Position numbers and translations under genes: made by a program | Notes under the pieces: model-generated | Databases searched by the model: none | Told to the model about the DNA's origin: nothing | What the model saw: the letters and a program-made list of their open reading frames with translations, nothing else | Origin: Alphaproteobacteria bacterium | GTDB taxonomy: Bacteria > Pseudomonadota > Alphaproteobacteria > UBA6615 | Direction: 5' to 3' | NCBI GenBank assembly: GCA_965261975.1 | Contig: CBDHEC010000028.1 | Coordinates: 1-22,247 of the forward strand | Length of the DNA: 22,247 nucleotides | Shown here: piece by piece, positions 9,028 to 16,624 of the stretch | How positions within the stretch are numbered: the first letter of the stretch is position 1 | How the letters are laid out: every line of letters begins with the position of its first letter

Positions 9028-10119
9028 TTAGAGAGCCTCGACGCCAAGTTCGTCCGCGACCTTCTTGAGGTTCTCGAGCAGCGGCGCGGTAATCGGAATG
9101 CCGTTGGCCACCCGATCCTGATAGATCCGCCAGCTGTTGGTGCCGGGCATGCGGATTTCCGACACGCCGGGCAGCTTTGCAGACCCGGTCATCTCGCGCG
9201 AGATGCGGTCGACATTGCCCTTGAATACGCCCGCGTCCAGGAAATGGCCGACATCGATCGCCATGATGAACTGGCCCGTGTTGGTGACGCTGTGGGGGTC
9301 CTCTCCGATATGCACGACGTCCGACCCGAATGCCGCGCCGTTCAACGTGCCGGCCAGGAAACCGATCACCATCGACAAACCGAAACCCTTGGCGCCGCCG
9401 ATATGGGTCAGGATGCCGTCATCGGCCTTCGCCGAATCCGTCATCGCCTCGCCCAGCGCGTCGATCACCCAGCCTTCGGGCATCGGCTCGCCATGCATCG
9501 CCTTGACCATGATCTTGCCCAGCGACGAATTCGTCGTCGCCATGTCGATAACGACCGGCGGTTCCTCCTGCGCCGGGATCGCGACGGCGATCGGGTTCGT
9601 GCCCACCAGGATATCGGTCCCGCCATAGGGGGCGGCGTGATTTGCGCTACCGACGCAGGCGATGAGACCGATCTGGTCACGCTCCAGCGCCATCGAGGCA
9701 TATACGGCTGCGGCACCGGCATGGTTGGAATTCTGCAGGCCAATCCACGCAATGCCGCTCTTGGCGGCCATGTCCATCGCCAGTTCCATCGAATAGCGGG
9801 CCACAAGATGGCCCATGCCATTGTCGCCGTTGACCAGCGCCATCGCCGGAGTCTGTTTGACGGTTCGGATATCCGGCGTGAGGTTGATGGCGCCGCCCTT
9901 GATGCGTTTGACGTACAGCGGGACACGAATGCAGCCATGACTGTCCTTGCCGAGGAGATCTCCGTCTGCCATCGCCGTGGCAACGCCTTCGGCATCCGCG
10001 TCCGGCAGGCCGACCGCCTGGAACACCGACGTCATGTAGGACTTCAGGCGATCATACGTGACGCGGACGGCGTTCTCGTCGACGGGAAACTCGGGTGAAA
10101 TCTCGTAGCCATCGGCCAT
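9028..10119 (-). CDS. Ldh_2 family oxidoreductase (malate/L-lactate/L-sulfolactate dehydrogenase type)
   Basis: DLLGKDSHG, VNGDNGMGH, NSNHAGAA, GTNPIAVAIP, IDMATT, GGAKGFGL, IRMPG; AAGGAG RBS. Confidence 0.92.
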   Translation of the reverse strand: MADGYEISPEFPVDENAVRVTYDRLKSYMTSVFQAVGLPDADAEGVATAMADGDLLGKDSHGCIRVPLYVKRIKGGAINLTPDIRTVKQTPAMALVNGDNGMGHLVARYSMELAMDMAAKSGIAWIGLQNSNHAGAAAVYASMALERDQIGLIACVGSANHAAPYGGTDILVGTNPIAVAIPAQEEPPVVIDMATTNSSLGKIMVKAMHGEPMPEGWVIDALGEAMTDSAKADDGILTHIGGAKGFGLSMVIGFLAGTLNGAAFGSDVVHIGEDPHSVTNTGQFIMAIDVGHFLDAGVFKGNVDRISREMTGSAKLPGVSEIRMPGTNSWRIYQDRVANGIPITAPLLENLKKVADELGVEAL

Positions 10120-10214: not shown

Positions 10215-10811
10215 ATGAACGCATACCTGTTCGCCACTGTCGAGTTGCACGACGCAGAGGGCTACGAGGCATATAAAGCAACCGCACCCGCGCTAATCGA
10301 AAAACATGGCGGACGCTATATCGTGCGCGGCGGCGACAATGAAGTTGTCGAAGGCACCTGGCCTGCAGGGCGGGTCGTCGTCCTGGAGTTTCCCGATCTA
10401 GCCAGCGCTAACGCTTTCGTCGACGACCCGGACTATGCGCCGATCGCCGCGATCCGTCATGCCACCGCCACGTCCCATATCTGGATTGTCGAGGGCCCCG
10501 AGGGCGGTGCCAACGCCGACGGCAAGCACGCCTACATCCTCGGGAACATCCGGATGACCGATCCAGACGGCTACAAGCCTTATGCCGACCAGGTGCCGGC
10601 TGTTATGGAAGCCGCACAGGGCGTGTATCTCGCACGTGGCGGCGCGTCGCGATCCGTCGAAGGCGGGATGGAACTCGACCGGCTCGTGATCGTCGCGTTC
10701 GAAGACATGGCGGCTGCCCGTGCGTTCTACGACGGCGACGCTTACAGCGCGATCAAGCCCATCCGCATCGCCGCGTCGGATTCGAACATCGTGATCGTCG
10801 AAGGACTCTAG
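10215..10811 (+). CDS. Tandem DUF1330 domain protein
   Basis: Two roughly 95-aa repeats: GGRYIVRGG..VEG..RVVVLEFPD..A..F..PDY..I..IR and QGVYLARGG..VEG..RLVIVAFED..A..FYDGDAY..IK.IR. Confidence 0.85.
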   Translation: MNAYLFATVELHDAEGYEAYKATAPALIEKHGGRYIVRGGDNEVVEGTWPAGRVVVLEFPDLASANAFVDDPDYAPIAAIRHATATSHIWIVEGPEGGANADGKHAYILGNIRMTDPDGYKPYADQVPAVMEAAQGVYLARGGASRSVEGGMELDRLVIVAFEDMAAARAFYDGDAYSAIKPIRIAASDSNIVIVEGL

Positions 10812-10819
10812 CGGACCGC

Positions 10820-11524
10820 CTACCAGGGACTGGGCGGCTTGTGCCAGAGCGGGACACGCGGGTTGCGCATAATCACCACCAGCACCGCGCCGGCGATAAA
10901 CCCGCCGATATGGGCCCATACCGCCGTGCCCAAAGCCGCCGGGGCGTCGGTCAGGCCCCAGAGCAGATCCTGCGCAAAGAAAGTGCCGATCACCAGCAAC
11001 GCCGGCAGGCGGATCGGGATCATCAGGAACGCCAGCACCAGCAGCCGCGCGCGCGGGTACAGTAACAGATAGCCGCCGAGCACGCCGGAGATCGCGCCGC
11101 TGGCACCGATGACCGGGGTGACGGAATCCGGCTCCACGATGCTTTGCGCCAAGCCGCCGGCGACACCACACATCAGGAAAAAAGCGACAAACCGCACATG
11201 CCCCAGCGCATCCTCGACATTGTCGCCGAACACCCAGAGAAACAGCATGTTGAACGCGAGGTGCGCCCAGTCGGCGTGCAGAAACTGATAGGTCACGAGG
11301 GTCAGCGGGGACGAGACCCCCGCGACACCGGCCGGCACATCCAGTCCATCGAAAAACCGCGCCGGGATCACGGCGTAGCCCGCCACCGCATCGAACCGCT
11401 GTCCGTCACCGACCCCCAGCTGGCTGACGAATATCAATGCGTTGATGACGATCAGGGCGATCGTGACGTAATGCGCCCGGATATAGAGACGCGGGTTGGC
11501 ATCATGCAGGGGGATTAGCGGCAT
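10820..11524 (-). CDS. Rhomboid family intramembrane serine protease
   Basis: MPLIPLHDANP start, TYQFLHADWAHLAFNMLFLWVFGDNVED, IGASGAISG (catalytic Ser), WAHIGGF (catalytic His). Confidence 0.93.
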   Translation of the reverse strand: MPLIPLHDANPRLYIRAHYVTIALIVINALIFVSQLGVGDGQRFDAVAGYAVIPARFFDGLDVPAGVAGVSSPLTLVTYQFLHADWAHLAFNMLFLWVFGDNVEDALGHVRFVAFFLMCGVAGGLAQSIVEPDSVTPVIGASGAISGVLGGYLLLYPRARLLVLAFLMIPIRLPALLVIGTFFAQDLLWGLTDAPAALGTAVWAHIGGFIAGAVLVVIMRNPRVPLWHKPPSPW

Positions 11525-11546
11525 AGCATTCGCCGCATCAGCTCCA

Positions 11547-12167
11547 TCAACCGGCAGAAGACCGGCTGAACAACCAGACACCCTCACTGTCGACCCCATA
11601 AAGGGGCTGCATGTCCATGTCTTCGGCGGGAATCACATCGGGCAATAGATTATCCATCGCCCAGAACGTGCCGTCGCTCTGTTCCGCCACGAGGACCGCG
11701 TGCGGTTCCGATTTGCCCCCACGACGGAGCAACCCGATGACAAGATGATTTCGGCTTTCGGGCCATCCGTGAAACGCCAGGGTCGTGGCCTTGGCCAGCG
11801 CGTAATCCTCGCAATCCCCACCGATGATGAGGGTGTCGCTAATGCCCGCCCAGAAATCGCTGGTCCCATGGACCGCGTAGTCTGTCCGGTAGCGCACTTG
11901 CTCGTTGATCAGCTTGTTGACCCCTGCAAGCAAGGTCGATTCCGGCTTGTTGGGAATCTTGCCGCTCCACTCGCGCCAGCGGGCGATATGGTTCTCGCGC
12001 GATTTCAGCAAATAATCATGCTGGGCCTCGACATGTTCACGCCACACCTTGAGCCGCCCCTCGATCTTCGCGGCGTGTGAATGAACCGGATGTTCAAACT
12101 TTCCGATGGCCGGAGTCGCAACGAACCCCAGCGCACCGGCGAGTAGAAATTGGCGTCGTGTCGGCAT
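11547..12167 (-). CDS. Transglutaminase-like cysteine peptidase (BTLCP/C93, LapG-like) with twin-arginine signal
   Basis: GAGGAGG RBS before ATG 12167; N-terminus MPTRRQFLLAGALG; VNKLIN..Y.TD..GTSDFWA; GDCEDYALAK (Cys), HAVL (His), MDN (Asp). Confidence 0.88.
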   Translation of the reverse strand: MPTRRQFLLAGALGFVATPAIGKFEHPVHSHAAKIEGRLKVWREHVEAQHDYLLKSRENHIARWREWSGKIPNKPESTLLAGVNKLINEQVRYRTDYAVHGTSDFWAGISDTLIIGGDCEDYALAKATTLAFHGWPESRNHLVIGLLRRGGKSEPHAVLVAEQSDGTFWAMDNLLPDVIPAEDMDMQPLYGVDSEGVWLFSRSSAG

Positions 12168-12192
12168 TTCAATCCTCCTCTGCTGTCCCGGC

Positions 12193-12897
12193 CTAGCGTC
12201 GCTTGAACTGCTCGGCACCGAACATCACGTCCCACGCCTTGCCCTTCGGAGGGCTGGAGCTGCGGTGCTCGATGAGGACCTCGAGGCCAGACTTCACCGC
12301 CGGGCGCGCGCCGACCTCCTCGAGCCAGCGCTTGGTGTTCGGATACTCGTCGAGCGGCACTTCCTGGCCCTTCCAGTTACGCATCCACGGGAAGGCCGCG
12401 ATGTCGGCGATCGTGTAATCGTCGCCGGCCAGATAGCGCGTCTTGCCAAGGCGCGTGTCGGCGACGCCGAACAGGCGCTTCGTCTCGTTGGCATAGCGGT
12501 TGGTCGCATACTCGATCCGGTCGGGCGCGTAGCGGCGGAAATGGTTCGCCTGGCCCATCATCGGGCCAATACCGCCCATCTGCCACATGAGCCATTCCAT
12601 CACCGCGTAATGCCCCGCCGGGTCAGCTGCCAGGTCCGGCATGAACCGGCCCGTTTTCTGAGCCAGGTAATACAGGATCGCGCCGGTCTCGAAGATGGAG
12701 ATTTCCTCGCCGCCGGGACCGTCGGTATCGATGATCGCGGGGATCCGGTTGTTCGGACTGATGGCCAGAAACTCTGGTTTGAACTGGTCGCCGTCGCCGA
12801 TATTCACCGGGATGACCTCGTGGTCGAGAGCACATTCGTGCAACATGATGTGGACCTTGTGCCCGTTCGGGGTCGGCCAGGAATATGCGCGAATCAT
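12193..12897 (-). CDS. Glutathione S-transferase, YfcG/Nu-class type
   Basis: CAGGAG RBS; YSWPTPNGHKV, FLAISPNNRIPAI, IFETGAILYYLAQKTG, EWLMWQMGGIGPMMGQ, YTIADIA, RPAV. Confidence 0.93.
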   Translation of the reverse strand: MIRAYSWPTPNGHKVHIMLHECALDHEVIPVNIGDGDQFKPEFLAISPNNRIPAIIDTDGPGGEEISIFETGAILYYLAQKTGRFMPDLAADPAGHYAVMEWLMWQMGGIGPMMGQANHFRRYAPDRIEYATNRYANETKRLFGVADTRLGKTRYLAGDDYTIADIAAFPWMRNWKGQEVPLDEYPNTKRWLEEVGARPAVKSGLEVLIEHRSSSPPKGKAWDVMFGAEQFKRR

Positions 12898-12916
12898 ATT
12901 CGTCTCCTGCAGTTCT

Positions 12917-14005
12917 TCAGTCGAACACGGCCACGCCGCGTTGCACGGCCGGGCGGGCCTCAATCTCGCCGAGCCAGCGTTTCACATTGTCCAGCCCGTC
13001 GAGACTCTGCCCCTGACGCTCATGGGTACGCAACCATCCGAAGGTCGCGATATCGGCAATCGAATACTCGTCGCCGGCGAGGAACTTCGTTTCGCCGAGG
13101 CGTCGGTCCGCCACGTTGAACAGACGGTCCATTTCTTCCGCGTAACGCTTCAGCGCGTAGGGGACCTTCTCCTTGGCGAACATATGGAAGTGGCCGTTCT
13201 GGCCAAGCATGGGGCCAACCCCGCCCATCTGCCACATCAGCCATTCCAGCACCGCCAGTCGGCCGCGTGAATCGCTCGTCCCATCGGGCAGGAACCGGCC
13301 GGTTTTCTCCGCCAGGTAGATCAGGAGCGCATGCAAACGGTCGGACATCGCTCCGTAGGCTGCCCCGGGACCGTAAACCATGAGGTCGTCGAACGGTCGC
13401 AGCACAAACTCAGGATCCGGCAAACTCTCGTAGCTCCCGTCGATGCGACGGATGCCCAGCACCCGAATGCCGGGGCCGAGAATTTCCGCCAGCCGCACGC
13501 CGTCATTCTTGAACTCTGTCCTGACGCGCATCTCGGAAACGTTGTGCCCCGCCGGCATCTGCAACAGCAGATGCGGAGCGTCACCCGAAAAGGCAGAGTG
13601 GCGGCTCAGCAACCAGCTGACCCCGGCGCACATCATCCGGTCGGCAAGCGGGTTGAGCGCGACGACCCAGAGCAGCACGAGCATACCCAAGATCCAGCCC
13701 AATTGTTCGACCATGCTCTTGTCGGTTTCGACCGTGTCGACAAGCGACACAATGACCGTCGCAAGGACGGTGACCAGACCAAGATTTCCGATCAGCATCA
13801 GCAAGCTCATGATCCGGCGACGCAACGGATGGTTCACCACCGTTTCCGATTCCGACGTCGTAAAACCCGCCCCCGTGAAAGCCGAGCGGGCCTGGAACCG
13901 GGCGACATCCTCCGGCAATCCGGTCAACCGGAGCGCCATCGCGGCAAAACGAATGAACATCACCGAAATCGTCAGAACTGCAAAAAGCGTTATCGCGGCG
14001 ACCAT
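12917..14005 (-). CDS. Fusion: membrane/pore-like + TrkA-C (RCK_C) protein joined in frame to a YfcG-type GST C-terminal domain
   Basis: Residues about 1-220: hydrophobic helices, ARFQARSAFTGAGFTTSESETVVNHPLRRRIMSLLM, and TrkA-C-like IRVLGIRR..P.P...L...DDLMVYG. Residues about 225-362: ALLIYLAEKTGRF..EWLMWQMGGVGPMLGQ..YSIADIA..RPAVQRG. There is no GST N-terminal TPNG/PNxRIP domain. GGGAGGGG RBS. Confidence 0.8.
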   Translation of the reverse strand: MVAAITLFAVLTISVMFIRFAAMALRLTGLPEDVARFQARSAFTGAGFTTSESETVVNHPLRRRIMSLLMLIGNLGLVTVLATVIVSLVDTVETDKSMVEQLGWILGMLVLLWVVALNPLADRMMCAGVSWLLSRHSAFSGDAPHLLLQMPAGHNVSEMRVRTEFKNDGVRLAEILGPGIRVLGIRRIDGSYESLPDPEFVLRPFDDLMVYGPGAAYGAMSDRLHALLIYLAEKTGRFLPDGTSDSRGRLAVLEWLMWQMGGVGPMLGQNGHFHMFAKEKVPYALKRYAEEMDRLFNVADRRLGETKFLAGDEYSIADIATFGWLRTHERQGQSLDGLDNVKRWLGEIEARPAVQRGVAVFD

Positions 14006-14095
14006 GGCGCCCCTCCCACGTTACAGGTGCGAACACGGCCAGTTTAATTCATGCGCAGCGCGTCGGCCGGTAACATTTCGGGGTCCACGATCAAC

Positions 14096-14452
14096 CTACC
14101 CGTCGGTGACGGGCGCCATATGGACCGCCAACCATACGGTCGGCCCCTCGGAATCTGTCCATTCGACGCGATGCCGGCAATGCGCGGGCAAAAACGCATA
14201 GCCGCCCGGCGCGAGCGTTCGGACATCGCTTTCACCCTCGATCCGCAATCCGGCCTGCCCCGCCACGACGACGACCCATTCATCATCGTCCTGGTCGAAC
14301 CACTCACCGGCTGGTGTAGCCTGACCGTCGGAGACGATCCGCACGATCCGAAGCCCCGAGCGTTCCAGCAGAGTGTCGAATTGTTCCTCCCGGGACGCAT
14401 CGGGCAAGGCGTCCAGCAGATCGCCGAAATTCGGTTTCGGTTCTTCTGCCAC
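14096..14452 (-). CDS. Cupin domain protein
   Basis: GTG start 4 nt after the upstream stop; RIVRIVSDGQATPAGEWFDQDDDEWVVVVAG..LAPGGYAFLPAHCRHRVEWT..TVWLAVH. Confidence 0.85.
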   Translation of the reverse strand: MAEEPKPNFGDLLDALPDASREEQFDTLLERSGLRIVRIVSDGQATPAGEWFDQDDDEWVVVVAGQAGLRIEGESDVRTLAPGGYAFLPAHCRHRVEWTDSEGPTVWLAVHMAPVTDG

Positions 14453-14456
14453 GGGC

Positions 14457-15455
14457 CTAGCGGACCACGACCTCGTCGCCGCTCTCGGCCGAGCGGACAA
14501 TCGCCTGCAGGATTTCGACATTGTGCAGCAGATGGTCGCGCGTGAAGCGGTACGTCCCCTTGCCCTGGGCCGCATCGGCCCACTGGTCGAGGTTTGCCCG
14601 GACCACATTCTGGGTCTGGTGGGTCTGGACCGTGAGCTCCTCATCGAGCCAGCGGGTGGTAAGCGTGGCGGGTTCGGGGATGTCCACGTTCGAGTTCTCC
14701 CGCGCCTCGCCCCAGCCCTTGTCGCCGAACACCTTGATGGCACTGTGAAACGGCGTCGTGGCGATGTTGCACATATAGCCTGTCACGCCGCTCTCGAAGG
14801 TAAACTGGACCGCGACCATGTCGTTCCCCGGGAAAAGCGGCGAACGGTCGGCCGTCGTCGCGCGCAACCTGGCGACCGGCCCGGCCATCGACTGGAAATA
14901 ATCGGTGATGTGCACGCCCAGCGCCGTCAGCGTGCCCAGTGGGGCCTGCTTCGCATCCTTTCGCCACCCCGAGGCCACAGCCTTGGTGAAGTTATTGTGG
15001 GACCAGTTGCACTCGATATGGATGAGCGTACCGAAGTCGCCCGCATCCAGATGGTCCTTCATGGCCTCGAGCGCGGGCTCAAACCGGCGCTCGTGACCGA
15101 TGCCGATGGCCTTCAGGCCGGCCTTGTCACAGGCCTCGAGCATCCGCTCGGCCGATTCCGCCGATAGCGAGAAAGGTTTCTCGCAGAAAATCTGCTTGCC
15201 GGCCGACGCCGCTGCCAGCACCTGCTCTTCATGCAGCGCGTGCGGCGTGACCAGGATCACCGCGTCGACCGCGTCGTCGGCGAGGACGTCCTCGTAGCTG
15301 TCGCCGACCGTGAGCCCGTGCAGCGCCGCGAAATCACGAACCCCGTCGAGGTTCACATCGACCCCGCGGGTCACGGTGATCTTCTCGCTATCGGCGAGGC
15401 TGGTGACGATCTGCTTGCCCCACCAGCCCAGCCCGACCACGGCCGCATTCAACAT
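14457..15455 (-). CDS. Gfo/Idh/MocA family oxidoreductase
   Basis: VVGLGWWG Rossmann motif, DAVILVTPHALH, GKQIFCEKPF, IGHERRF, LGVHITD. Confidence 0.92.
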   Translation of the reverse strand: MLNAAVVGLGWWGKQIVTSLADSEKITVTRGVDVNLDGVRDFAALHGLTVGDSYEDVLADDAVDAVILVTPHALHEEQVLAAASAGKQIFCEKPFSLSAESAERMLEACDKAGLKAIGIGHERRFEPALEAMKDHLDAGDFGTLIHIECNWSHNNFTKAVASGWRKDAKQAPLGTLTALGVHITDYFQSMAGPVARLRATTADRSPLFPGNDMVAVQFTFESGVTGYMCNIATTPFHSAIKVFGDKGWGEARENSNVDIPEPATLTTRWLDEELTVQTHQTQNVVRANLDQWADAAQGKGTYRFTRDHLLHNVEILQAIVRSAESGDEVVVR

Positions 15456-15549
15456 CACACTTCCCCCCCGACATCGCTCGTTGTTCTTCGGCAAGATTGA
15501 AGCAGGGTTGGGGACGCGACACCAGCCGCGTCACATGTGCACCCGGCTT

Positions 15550-16083
15550 TCAGTCGGCGTCGCGATACTCGCCGTCAATCAACAGCTTGTGCTGGACCGG
15601 GATCGGGTCGGCCAGCGTTGCCTCGACGAAGCAGCCCTTCTGGGCCGCGTCGAGCAAACGCTTCTGATCTTCGAAGGGCGCGTCGCTGTCGAGATCGATA
15701 TCAAGCCGGAAGGCCACCGGGCGACTGGTATAGGGATCGCGACCCTCGACCCGAGCCTCCCATTCGATATGCGCCTTCACGCCGACGTCGCCGATCTCGA
15801 CCCGCAGGCGTTTGGCGAAGGCGCGGATCTGGGTCATCAGGCAGGCCACGAAGCCGGTGCAGAAATAGGCCAGCGGCGGCGGTGCCGTCATATCGCCGCC
15901 ATGGGCGGCGCCCTCATCCGTCGCCATCTCGAAGACCTCATCAACCACGGGGCTGACCATCTGCCCCTTGATCTCGTTGCGCATCTTGCCGACGGCCTTG
16001 CCCTCGACGTTGAAAACAACATTGAAGGTTTTGACCTTGCCGTCATCGGCCATGGTTTCGGTTTTCTTCAGTTCTTCAGCCAT
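15550..16083 (-). CDS. OsmC/Ohr family protein
   Basis: DEGAAHGGDMTAPPPLAYFCTGFVACLMTQ and AAQKGCFVEATL (the two family cysteines); AAGGAG RBS. Confidence 0.85.
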   Translation of the reverse strand: MAEELKKTETMADDGKVKTFNVVFNVEGKAVGKMRNEIKGQMVSPVVDEVFEMATDEGAAHGGDMTAPPPLAYFCTGFVACLMTQIRAFAKRLRVEIGDVGVKAHIEWEARVEGRDPYTSRPVAFRLDIDLDSDAPFEDQKRLLDAAQKGCFVEATLADPIPVQHKLLIDGEYRDAD

Positions 16084-16105: not shown

Positions 16106-16624
16106 CTAGTCGGCGTCGCGTCCTTCGTTCGGCCAGTTGCCGAACGTCTGTTCGTATGAATGGGAAAAGATCTCGATCACGTTCCCAAACGGGTCCTCGC
16201 AGTAACAGAGCTTGCGGTCGGTCACGGGAATGAACGCCCAGACATCGGTGCGTTGCTTGCCACCCTCGGCAACGATCTTCGCCACGAGCCCCTCGATATC
16301 GGGATCCGTGAAGCAGATATGCCAGTAGCCGTGCTTCCAGTATTCGAGATTGTCGTCCGGCGCTTCGGTTTCGGGATCGGTGAACTGGAACAGTTCAAGT
16401 CCGATGCCGTTGCCAGTGACCAGATGTGCCTGGAGCGCTGCGCGAAACCGCGGCCCGAGAATATGTCCCGATTCCGCCGTGTCCGACAGCTTCGCCTCAA
16501 GGCGACGTGGGCCCATGATCCGGCGGAAACCGAATACCCGCCCATACCAGTCGATTGCGGCGTGAATGTCGGGCACGGTGAGCCCGATGTGGTTGAGCGC
16601 CCGCGGGGTCGCCAGGTCCGTCAT
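16106..16624 (-). CDS. VOC (glyoxalase/bleomycin resistance) family protein
   Basis: LNHIGLTVPDIHAAIDWY, GIGLELFQF, GYWHICFTDPDI, YCEDPFGNVIEI: metal ligands H/E/H/E present. Confidence 0.9.
   Translation of the reverse strand: MTDLATPRALNHIGLTVPDIHAAIDWYGRVFGFRRIMGPRRLEAKLSDTAESGHILGPRFRAALQAHLVTGNGIGLELFQFTDPETEAPDDNLEYWKHGYWHICFTDPDIEGLVAKIVAEGGKQRTDVWAFIPVTDRKLCYCEDPFGNVIEIFSHSYEQTFGNWPNEGRDAD

Follow-up and report, generated by a model that had tools for sequence, protein, structure and literature searches.

Organization of the locus and its relatives

The window, as we call the whole 22,247-nucleotide stretch of alphaproteobacterial DNA analyzed here, carries on its minus strand a chimeric ORF (12917..14005, 362 codons plus stop) in which a channel/RCK_C protein is joined to the remnant of a GST C-domain. 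The frame begins with ATG and remains open throughout its 362 codons, as the initial annotation had described. In the encoded protein, residues 1-229 form a pore-loop channel subunit that includes a TrkA-C/RCK_C domain, and residues 226-362 derive from a YfcG-like (Nu-class) GST, of which they represent the C-terminal half. Downstream lies GST2 (12193..12897, minus strand), an intact paralogous Nu-class GST of 234 residues that is 96% identical to the GST2 of G010, a genome of the same genus. Upstream, and outside the fusion, are a Cupin_2 gene (14096..14440, minus strand), which is syntenic in G010, G002, and G008, and a Gfo/Idh/MocA oxidoreductase gene (14457..15494, minus strand) that serves as a synteny anchor. 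With GST2, OsmC, and glyoxalase, the neighborhood has a detoxification flavor.

In the two genomes of the same genus, G010 (locus L002) and G002 (locus L003), the order is oxidoreductase, cupin, a 231-residue channel ending in its own stop codon, a 75-nt spacer, a 209-residue GST1, and the 234-residue GST2. The window has the same gene order except for its single fused ORF, whose start codon and N-terminus (MVAAITLF...) are identical to those of the separate 231-aa genes of both relatives. GST1 homologues with a full N-domain are present in G010, G002, G008, G003, G022, and G019; in the last two, which belong to other genera, a tandem GST1-GST2 pair occurs without any channel. Two further relatives have lost parts of the locus: in G008 an independent in-frame internal deletion has reduced the channel gene to a 34-codon remnant, and in G003 both cupin and channel are missing. 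With these losses, the channel-GST locus is deletion-prone.

The GST-derived half of the fused protein

The GST1-derived remnant (12917..13326, minus strand) comprises the second half of helix α3, the all-helical C-domain (GST1 residues 73/77-209), and the stop codon, and shares 92-93% amino acid identity with the GST1 of G010; the stretch at the junction is taken by us to be helix α3 from the general GST topology. Pfam places GST_C at residues 286-352 (E 2.3e-10, above the cut-off) and does not match GST_N in the fused protein, while in GST2 both GST_N (residues 4-80, E 9e-13) and GST_C are matched. The paralogy with the next gene proposed in the initial annotation is borne out by a gapless alignment of residues 226-361 with GST2 residues 73-208, at 57% identity (E = 7e-56), a likeness that, at the level of sequence, far exceeds chance. 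Together with the GST_C match, this alignment identifies an all-helical GST C-domain in the fused ORF.

The NCBIfam model for YfcG-type enzymes (NF010579) is matched at profile positions 73-201 only (E 2.1e-35), and the score of 122.1 bits stays below the curated whole-protein cut-off of 332. Because this match begins only at position 73, the thioredoxin-like N-domain is absent from the fused ORF, which agrees with what had been read from the window; relative to its relatives, the ORF has neither GST_N nor GST1 codons 1-76. The thioredoxin-like N-domain is the carrier of the glutathione site in GSTs, and the motifs deleted with it are TPNGHK (9-14), ISPNNKIP (46-53), and FESG (69-72, all in GST1 numbering). 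Since this whole domain is lost, the remnant should be a passenger tail that neither binds glutathione nor catalyzes. Compared with YfcG and YghU, Nu-class GSTs that act as GSH-dependent disulfide-bond oxidoreductases, the C-terminal 137 residues of the fused ORF correspond to a fragment of a YfcG-like orthologue from which the entire thioredoxin-like domain has been deleted.

The predicted pore module of the channel parent

The channel-derived part (13319..14005, minus strand) retains residues 1-229 of the ancestral 231-aa protein and has lost only the last two codons and the stop. It is 94% identical in amino acids and 89% in nucleotides to the channel gene of G010, and 96% identical to P0003, a free-standing 231-aa protein. 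The AlphaFold model of P0003 (pLDDT 73) is the basis for all structural statements made here on the channel half.

In this model, the pore module (M1 - pore helix/loop - M2, residues 1-93; 13727..14005, minus strand) has a pLDDT of 58-77. In a wide VIA-align search, residues 1-90 superpose on NaK (Z 10.5, rmsd 2.1 Å over 86 aa) and KcsA (Z 9.0), which bears out the pore-loop-like segment seen in the initial annotation; comparison with the MthK pore gives Z 7.7 and with GsuK Z 8.0. The channel half is accordingly modeled with an M1 - pore helix - loop - M2 fold. The module was visible through the VIA-align search and not through Foldseek, where full-length MthK was among the PDB matches (E 1.5e-4 to 1e-3, TM ~0.28); the top rows (2bko/1vct, MthK) have TM ~0.28 with a whole-chain rmsd of 17-30 Å and are informative for RCK_C only. 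The filter-like motif S-A-F-T-G-A-G-F-T-T (residues 41-50; 13856..13885, minus strand) is conserved in the family, with S41, A42, F43, G45, G47, F48, and T50 invariant in 45 aligned members. It reads T-G-A-G-F and not T-V-G-Y-G, the signature of canonical K+ channels, and profile similarity to their pores is nil (hhalign P 0.15). Pfam Ion_trans_2 gave no match at E ≤ 1 for the ORF or its aligned relatives, and a PF07885 search across the source genome matched only another locus, on contig C18.

Profile comparisons lean, weakly, toward a different group of transporters. The P-loop aligns in register with the TrkH repeats in hhalign (P 0.0012 for the second, 0.014 for the third, 0.041 for the first, and 0.34 for the fourth; P 0.0082 in a single-sequence comparison), with a best probability of 19%, which is below significance. 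NCBIfam TrkH matches residues 35-85 faintly (E 0.074), and Pfam TrkH matches neither the ORF nor the aligned relatives. The RCK_C part also matches KtrA; all of these sequence similarities are below significance. The membrane half, for which no Pfam family was matched, may weakly resemble a single TrkH/KtrB repeat more than a canonical K+ channel. TrkH and KtrB (SKT proteins) have four M1-P-M2 repeats per chain and use separate TrkA/KtrA rings, whereas the channel family has one repeat, in about 93 residues, and a covalently attached RCK_C domain. With RCK channels of the MthK/GsuK type it shares an M1-P-M2 pore module and a cytoplasmic RCK_C-fold domain on the same chain, but it has RCK_C only, without the RCK_N (Rossmann) half, and has an additional third hydrophobic helix (H95-116 in the P0003 model). 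A homotetramer prediction for the 231-aa channel (four copies, alignment A2) scored 0.21 against a mark of 0.42, which amounts to no answer, and is evidence for neither side.

The RCK_C domain and the channel family

The RCK_C/TrkA-C domain with its terminal helix occupies approximately residues 141-229 (13319..13585, minus strand). On the window protein, Pfam TrkA_C (PF02080) falls below threshold (residues 170-223, E 1.1e-3, 19.3 bits against a cut-off of 27). At the family level the assignment is nevertheless solid: TrkA_C is found at E ≤ 1 in 39 of 45 aligned relatives (best 3.1e-11), and distant or longer members score 41-94 bits, up to 93.8. The part matches KtrA residues 117-219 in a profile comparison (E 0.0035), and residues 136-231 of the P0003 model superpose on TM1088 (Z 10.1, rmsd 2.1 Å over 81 aa), TrkA (Z 10.0), KhtT (Z 9.9), and KtrC (Z 9.8), within an overall RCK_C range of Z 9.4-10.1. 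The relatives and the superpositions at Z ~10 support the TrkA-C-like domain that had been proposed, and the channel half is modeled with an RCK_C fold. The predicted terminal helix of this domain (H214-229) abuts the junction.

At 50% identity the channel family forms 452 clusters (E ≤ 1e-30), and species-representative genomes contain at least 534 stretches of it; the records are labeled as coming from numerous bacterial phyla and from several groups of archaea. No characterized member was found in the literature listings on the family, and the clusters retrieved from the ESM Atlas, which contain TrkA_C, were all labeled "hypothetical protein" and gave no name. Among ORFs within 2.5 kb of 80 loci, no neighbor cluster occurred in more than 12 loci and no operon partner emerged. 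The largest neighbor clusters were heterogeneous or consisted of long spurious frames of high-GC DNA, and one cluster (6 loci) was an Na_H_Exchanger gene.

The deletion and its junction

Compared with either G010 or G002, the window lacks exactly 312 nt, in frame. The best split point lies at ORF nucleotides 679-681, with 89% nucleotide identity to G010 on both sides; breakpoints were set by a two-sided match scan, because a three-way DNA alignment in MAFFT, faced with the large gap, put the left flank in the wrong place. The junction (13319..13326, minus strand), where the initial annotation had placed a switch at about nt 13330, is an 8-nt microhomology, TCCTGATC, common to the 3′ end of the channel gene and GST1 codons 74-76. 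The 12-mers flanking the deletion, GCG[C/A]TCCTGATC, match at 11 of 12 positions around the exact 8-nt core. The channel remnant of G008 ends in ...GCGCTCCTGATC-GAT-GGC-TGA, the GST1 of G002 reads GCGATCCTGATC-TAC at the matching site, and the junction peptide of the fused protein is ...DRLHALLIYLAEKTG....

In the reconstructed ancestor, four elements lay on one strand: a gene for a 231-aa pore-loop channel that ended in an RCK_C domain, the spacer of 75 nt, a complete 209-aa YfcG-like GST1, and the paralogous GST2. A single 312-nt deletion then removed 9 nt at the end of the channel gene (its last two codons and stop), all 75 nt of the spacer, and 228 nt of GST1, corresponding to its first 76 codons. 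The event was probably a slipped-strand or microhomology-mediated deletion between the near-identical 12-mers. Because 312 is divisible by 3, the channel frame runs straight into helix α3 of GST1. The truncated form of GST1 is the derived one, since homologues with a full N-domain are found in all six relatives named above. The deletion, its exact size and ends, and its derived state are established by these comparisons. Deletions between short repeats in bacterial genes are a textbook phenomenon, and the event at this locus, in frame, between repeats of 8-12 nt, and removing a stop, a spacer, and the 5′ end of a gene, differs in no way in kind from other gene fusions by short-direct-repeat deletion; it is one more natural example.

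The opposite polarity, in which the fused form is ancestral and was split by relatives into two genes, deserves hardly any credence. No point in its support was found. The GST1 of the relatives has the complete Nu-class N-domain that the fusion lacks (the intact G010 copy matches E. coli YfcG, 3gx0, with E 9.8e-67 over residues 1-205), tandem GST1-GST2 pairs without a channel exist in other genera (G022 and G019), and the channel is free-standing in 80 of 80 family loci across many phyla.

Distribution of the fusion

The initial annotation had proposed a search for the same architecture in other genomes, and none was found. In a search of 5.8 billion proteins, none of the best 120 of 7964 matches covered more than 66% of the query, an absence that is telling because a fused relative would rank first. 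The fusion occurred in 0 of 80 species-representative channel loci, where the stop comes no more than 82 residues after the match, and 0 of 80 metagenome loci spanned both halves of the ORF. Among 46 genomes of the taxonomic family, five have the channel and only the source genome (G000) has it fused. Ten channel-family members of 310-382 aa, picked from the best 150 matches, contain no GST domain according to Pfam. Among the titles listed by full-text literature searches, none described either the fusion or the channel family. Only one of 80 family loci has a GST gene at a distance of 4 kb or less from the channel, and channel-GST adjacency is not conserved. The fusion is a one-off in this genome and does not represent a new conserved protein type.

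Assembly support for the junction

A Logan contig of run X1 (15,847 bases) covers positions 12000-14600 with 0 differences and 0 gaps, and no contig of the undeleted form was found in X1 at ≥90% likeness. X1, a DNA run, is the only one listed with the stretch, as contigs at a depth of about 4; it may be the source sample of the genome itself, and is thus not independent. No RNA run was found to contain the stretch. The junction does not depend on a single assembler, and the fused gene is real in this assembly.

An artefactual junction, or a minority allele that became the consensus, is improbable, whether through a chimeric molecule, a low-coverage misassembly, or strain mixture in a metagenome-assembled genome. 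Such an origin would fit the fragmented source genome (59 contigs, 94.6% complete, 2.8% contamination), the low depth in the only run, and the fact that chimeric molecules, too, often join at microhomologies. It is opposed by the agreement, base for base over 2.6 kb at the junction, of two assemblies without an undeleted contig, by a deletion that is cleanly in frame, and by flanks that diverge from relatives as evenly as the neighboring genes do (89% on both sides). A repeat of 8-12 nt would moreover be too short to collapse the k-mer graph of an assembler.

Selection, age, and function of the chimera

Between the window and G010, the GST remnant has a dN/dS of 0.058, within the range of 0.045-0.072 found among intact GST1 copies. 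The remnant has acquired one private amino acid change and two private synonymous changes in 393 nt, and neither the pairwise dN/dS nor these counts revealed any decay. These values fit a very recent event and continued constraint equally well, because three private changes are too few to separate the two, and the age of the deletion is only loosely bounded since the nearest relative available as DNA is only 89% identical in nucleotides. The initial annotation had coupled a fusion unique to this genome, with relatives carrying a separate TrkA-C gene and two intact GST genes, to relaxed selection; the first part is what the relatives display, while relaxed selection is not observed, the remnant being as conserved as intact copies.

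Of the two readings offered at the outset, that of a recent in-frame chimera is upheld by the three separate genes kept in G010 and G002 and the 312 nt missing in frame, and the ORF is very probably a young, lineage-specific chimera born from this one deletion. The other reading, a glutathione- or redox-coupled membrane protein, found no support in the distribution of the fusion, the single GST-adjacent locus among 80, or the missing glutathione elements. The analogy with Kef that accompanied it did not hold either. KefB and KefC pair a membrane domain of the CPA2 antiporter fold with a KTN/RCK_N domain to which glutathione adducts bind, and what they share with the fused ORF is only the general idea that a glutathione-related ligand and an RCK-type domain control a K+ pathway; the fused ORF has neither Na_H_Exchanger nor TrkA_N (Pfam, E ≤ 1), no CPA2 or KTN domain appears in its Pfam listing, and its glutathione site is gone.

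It is accordingly very unlikely that the fusion was kept because it is functional, with the GST tail on the RCK_C ring pairing with GST2 or binding glutathione conjugates in a Kef-like redox or electrophile gating. The strong purifying-selection statistics of the GST half with its intact frame could be cited for such a role, as could the detoxification neighborhood, and the predicted meeting of the RCK_C terminal helix (H214-229) with what we take to be GST helix α3 would make it sterically plausible. The low dN/dS is, however, equally explained by recency, every element of the glutathione site was in the deleted N-domain, the fusion was found only in this genome, channel and GST are neighbors in only one of 80 loci, and relatives delete the channel outright, hence the pair is no obligate unit. 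Likewise very unlikely is a newborn functional gene, with an active channel whose GST tail recruits GST2 or binds glutathione conjugates; if true, this one lineage would possess a cation channel that responds to electrophiles or redox state in the manner of Kef, seen very shortly after a single microhomology deletion gave rise to it.

For the young chimera, which is the reading we prefer, the consequences appear modest. The junction lies in the variable C-terminal tail of the channel family, whose natural members carry 1-82 extra residues, and the channel half is essentially intact; it probably still assembles and conducts like its parent. The function of GST1 would be lost, with GST2 and other Nu-class paralogues of this genome plausibly taking its place.

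As the claim of a glutathione-coupled channel architecture fails, the weight of the fusion itself is small. It nonetheless provides a clean natural case, open to dating, in which a single in-frame deletion at a microhomology gave rise to a new combination of domains while both parents are kept in sister genomes, and the second, independent deletion at the same locus in G008 adds to its value as an illustration of gene birth and decay. It also serves as a warning for annotation pipelines, in which the ORF would be named a GST. Of greater promise is the parent family, compact proteins of about 230 aa in which an RCK_C domain is tethered to a membrane part with a single pore-loop module and a third helix.

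Domain composition of the fused reading frame

The fused ORF (12917-14005, reverse strand) runs uninterrupted through 362 codons from an ATG start, and the next gene downstream (12193-12897) encodes GST2, a complete GST of 234 residues. Residues 226-361 of the ORF align without gaps to residues 73-208 of GST2 with 57% identity (E 7e-56). In Pfam, GST2 comprises GST_N and GST_C, whereas the ORF contains GST_C at 286-352 (E 2.3e-10) and no GST_N; the NCBIfam YfcG-type model likewise matched the ORF only from profile position 73. TrkA_C was detected on residues 170-223 at 19.3 bits, below the 27-bit threshold, while it was recovered at E ≤ 1 in 39 of 45 aligned channel-family relatives (best 3.1e-11) and at 41-94 bits in more distant members. 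The switch from channel to GST was placed at 13319-13326; in this, as in its other sequence observations, the initial annotation was correct. A deletion produced this ORF, which is a chimera of a known kind and not a new conserved architecture.

Origin of the fusion by a 312-nt deletion

Relatives were compared by a six-frame search of 41 related genomes, ORF listings and tblastn of the syntenic gene set. Two genomes of the same genus, G010 and G002, share the order Gfo/Idh/MocA oxidoreductase, cupin, 231-aa channel/TrkA-C gene with its stop, 75-nt spacer, complete 209-aa GST1 and 234-aa GST2; the window keeps this order with the channel gene and GST1 in one frame. In the genes compared, locus L013, taken from a public MAG record labelled Rhodospirillaceae, does not differ in sequence from the G002 locus, and the two are treated as a single case. 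In two genomes of other genera (G022, G019), the GST1-GST2 tandem occurs without the channel gene.

A two-sided match scan showed that the window is shorter than G010 and G002 by exactly 312 nt, with 89% nucleotide identity to G010 on each side of the break. Of the missing segment, 9 nt are the channel gene's last two codons and stop, 75 nt the spacer and 228 nt GST1 codons 1-76. The window reads ...CATGCGCTCCTGATC up to the junction and TACCTGG... after it; G002 GST1 reads GCGATCCTGATC-TAC at the break, and the channel remnant of a third same-genus genome, G008, ends in ...GCGCTCCTGATC-GAT-GGC-TGA. The two 12-mers between which the deletion lies differ at one of their 12 positions and share an exact 8-nt core, TCCTGATC. 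Slipped-strand and microhomology-mediated deletion are established mechanisms, of which such near-identical repeats would be the signature, and an event of this type between the 12-mers would have fused the channel gene to GST1. The relatives keep full-length GST1 orthologues, and their N-domain is homologous to that of E. coli YfcG (E 9.8e-67 over residues 1-205); the window's truncated and fused form is therefore derived. Of the two origins proposed in the initial annotation, a recent in-frame TrkA-C/GST chimera is thus the right one, given the in-frame loss of 312 nt relative to separate genes in G010 and G002.

Alternatives to an accidental fusion

The junction could instead be an assembly artefact or a minor allele. 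One public sequencing run, X1, kept as contigs, contains the stretch and is possibly the genome's own source, so that it is not independent evidence; its 15,847-base contig covers 12000-14600 at a depth of ~4 without differences or gaps, and the undeleted form was not found among its contigs at ≥90% likeness. The two assemblies agree across the junction, and an 8-12-nt repeat should not be long enough to collapse a k-mer assembly graph, so we consider this explanation quite improbable.

The other proposal of the initial annotation was an undescribed glutathione- or redox-coupled membrane protein, which is unsupported, as the GST N-domain is gone and the fusion was seen in no other genome or protein searched. 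In a collection of 5.8 billion proteins, the best 120 of 7964 matches cover at most 66% of the query and are either channel proteins of 201-243 aa or GSTs of 204-234 aa; a fused relative would have out-scored every match listed. The closest channel protein among the matches listed, P0003, is free-standing, 231 aa long and 96% identical, ending in ...HALLIDD. A pattern scan of species-representative genomes returned 534 stretches encoding the channel family; the best 80 loci show no fusion, with at most 82 residues between match and stop, and a Nu-class GST lies within 4 kb of the channel gene in one of them (L013). None of the best 80 metagenome loci spans both halves: in 79 the match begins at residue 144 or later (nearly all cover 226-360), and L093 matches residues 1-198 before its contig ends. 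An exhaustive HMMER search of 1.84 billion cluster representatives yielded 452 proteins at E ≤ 1e-30; among ten members of 310-382 aa chosen from the best 150 matches, Pfam found a GST domain in none and two tandem TrkA_C domains in four (P0130, P0134, P0151 and P0242; 322-382 aa). Kef systems combine CPA2 and KTN domains, whereas the Pfam listing for the ORF has neither, and it is therefore not Kef-like.

The initial annotation had also reasoned that a fusion unique to this genome and under relaxed selection, with separate genes in relatives, would speak against such a protein. Within these searches, the uniqueness and the separate genes were borne out, but the GST remnant has a dN/dS of 0.058 against G010, compared with 0.064 for the channel half, 0.045 for GST2 and 0.045-0.072 for the corresponding GST1 segment between intact copies. 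The window's private changes in the 393-nt remnant are one amino-acid and two synonymous, and neither these counts nor dN/dS point to decay. Given a dS of ~0.5 to the nearest genome, so few private changes imply either a deletion much younger than that divergence or continuing constraint on the remnant, and the data fit both alike. That the fusion is a newborn functional glutathione-linked channel is, in our estimation, exceedingly improbable.

Instability of the locus in the genus

Using the ORF as query, the channel was found in five of 46 same-family genomes: fused in the window's genome, intact in G010 and G002, a remnant in G008 and a 37%-identical copy in G018; it was not found in eight of 11 other genomes of the genus, which are 79-100% complete. 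In G008, the order is oxidoreductase, cupin, channel remnant, GST1 and GST2, both GSTs being intact, and an independent in-frame internal deletion has left 34 codons (L004 2203-2307, reverse strand), with MVAAITLFAVLTISVMFIRFAAM joined at a GCGATG microhomology to FDRLHALLIDG and the stop. In G003, a further same-genus genome with neither cupin nor channel, the oxidoreductase is followed by GST1 and GST2 after ~93 nt (L005 1194-1288), either the ancestral state or a larger deletion. The G008 remnant and the G003 absence mark the channel as an accessory gene undergoing loss or rearrangement, a setting in keeping with an accidental origin of the fusion in the window. The 86-87%-identical channel gene of L093 (1114-1699) is matched over residues 1-29 in one frame and over the overlapping residues 28-198 in another, which suggests a frameshift or sequencing error near codon 28.

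Likely behaviour of the fused product

The GST half is orthologous to GST1 residues 73/77-209, which make up the last part of helix α3 and the helical C-domain. The thioredoxin-like domain, where the glutathione site of GSTs sits, is wholly gone, including TPNGHK (9-14), ISPNNKIP (46-53) and FESG (69-72; G010 GST1 numbering). Since the GST family in its functional sense requires the N-domain, the ORF stands outside it. The remnant would thus be unable to bind glutathione as GSTs do and is most simply read as a passenger, possibly poorly folded, with GST1 activity presumably lost. Conservation in the channel-family alignment ends at about residue 213, and natural members carry 1-82 additional residues in their tails; because the junction falls in this variable C-terminal tail, the channel part is probably unharmed.

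GST2 and at least two further Nu-class paralogues, on contigs C3 and C56, are left in the genome. The GSTs and their neighbours form a loose detoxification theme: an Ldh_2 dehydrogenase (9028-10119), a tandem-DUF1330 protein (10215-10811), a rhomboid protease (10820-11599), a BTLCP transglutaminase-like cysteine peptidase (11547-12218, overlapping the GST2 stop by 26 nt), an OsmC-like protein (15550-16083) and a glyoxalase-fold protein (16106-16624).

The parent channel family

In an AlphaFold model of P0003 based on 45 relatives (mean pLDDT 73), helices occupy 2-27, 32-44 and 50-58; a long one (60-91) and a third hydrophobic one (95-116) follow, then a linker helix and a beta-rich domain whose terminal helix lies at 214-229. 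Against 48,161 PDB representatives, model residues 1-90 match the NaK pore module (Z 10.5, rmsd 2.1 Å over 86 aa), KcsA (Z 9.0) and many Kv, Kir, CNG, MthK and GsuK pores, and residues 136-231 match the RCK_C domains of TM1088, TrkA, KhtT and KtrC (Z 9.8-10.1); the family profile also matches KtrA 117-219 (E 0.0035). By its predicted fold, the family is a pore-loop channel. Canonical K+ channels carry a TVGYG signature, whereas this family has SAFTGAGFTT, located in the loop between short helices and with seven of ten residues invariant in 45 sequences. Pfam gave no match of Ion_trans_2 or TrkH to the channel half or aligned relatives. In profile-profile comparison with TrkH (27 alphaproteobacterial sequences), the P-loops are in register (P 0.0012 for the second repeat, 0.014 for the third, 0.041 for the first and 0.34 for the fourth; best probability 19%), compared with P 0.15 for 23 canonical K+ channel pores. 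These values weakly place the family nearer a single TrkH/KtrB repeat than canonical K+ channels, a relationship that is not significant; its members may be free-standing, one-repeat relatives of the SKT transporters.

Members of ~230 aa are predicted to combine one pore-loop module, a third helix and a tethered RCK_C domain (window 13319-14005, reverse strand; proteins P0003-P0011 and P0020-P0102; loci L013-L092). No source gives the family a functional name, and no Pfam family matches its membrane half. In six of 80 family loci, a clustered ORF occurs upstream of the channel gene at a distance of at most 2.5 kb, and the sole scanned example (L049 1032-2315, forward strand) is a Na_H_Exchanger (CPA) gene; no neighbour is kept in more than 12 of the 80. 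The family comprises at least 534 stretches in species-representative genomes and 452 clusters at 50% identity (E ≤ 1e-30), in bacterial records labelled Alpha- and Gammaproteobacteria, Planctomycetota, Desulfobacterota, cyanobacterial genera and Chloroflexia, and archaeal records labelled Thermococci, Thermoplasmata and Pyrodictiaceae. This parent channel family is the lead worth keeping.
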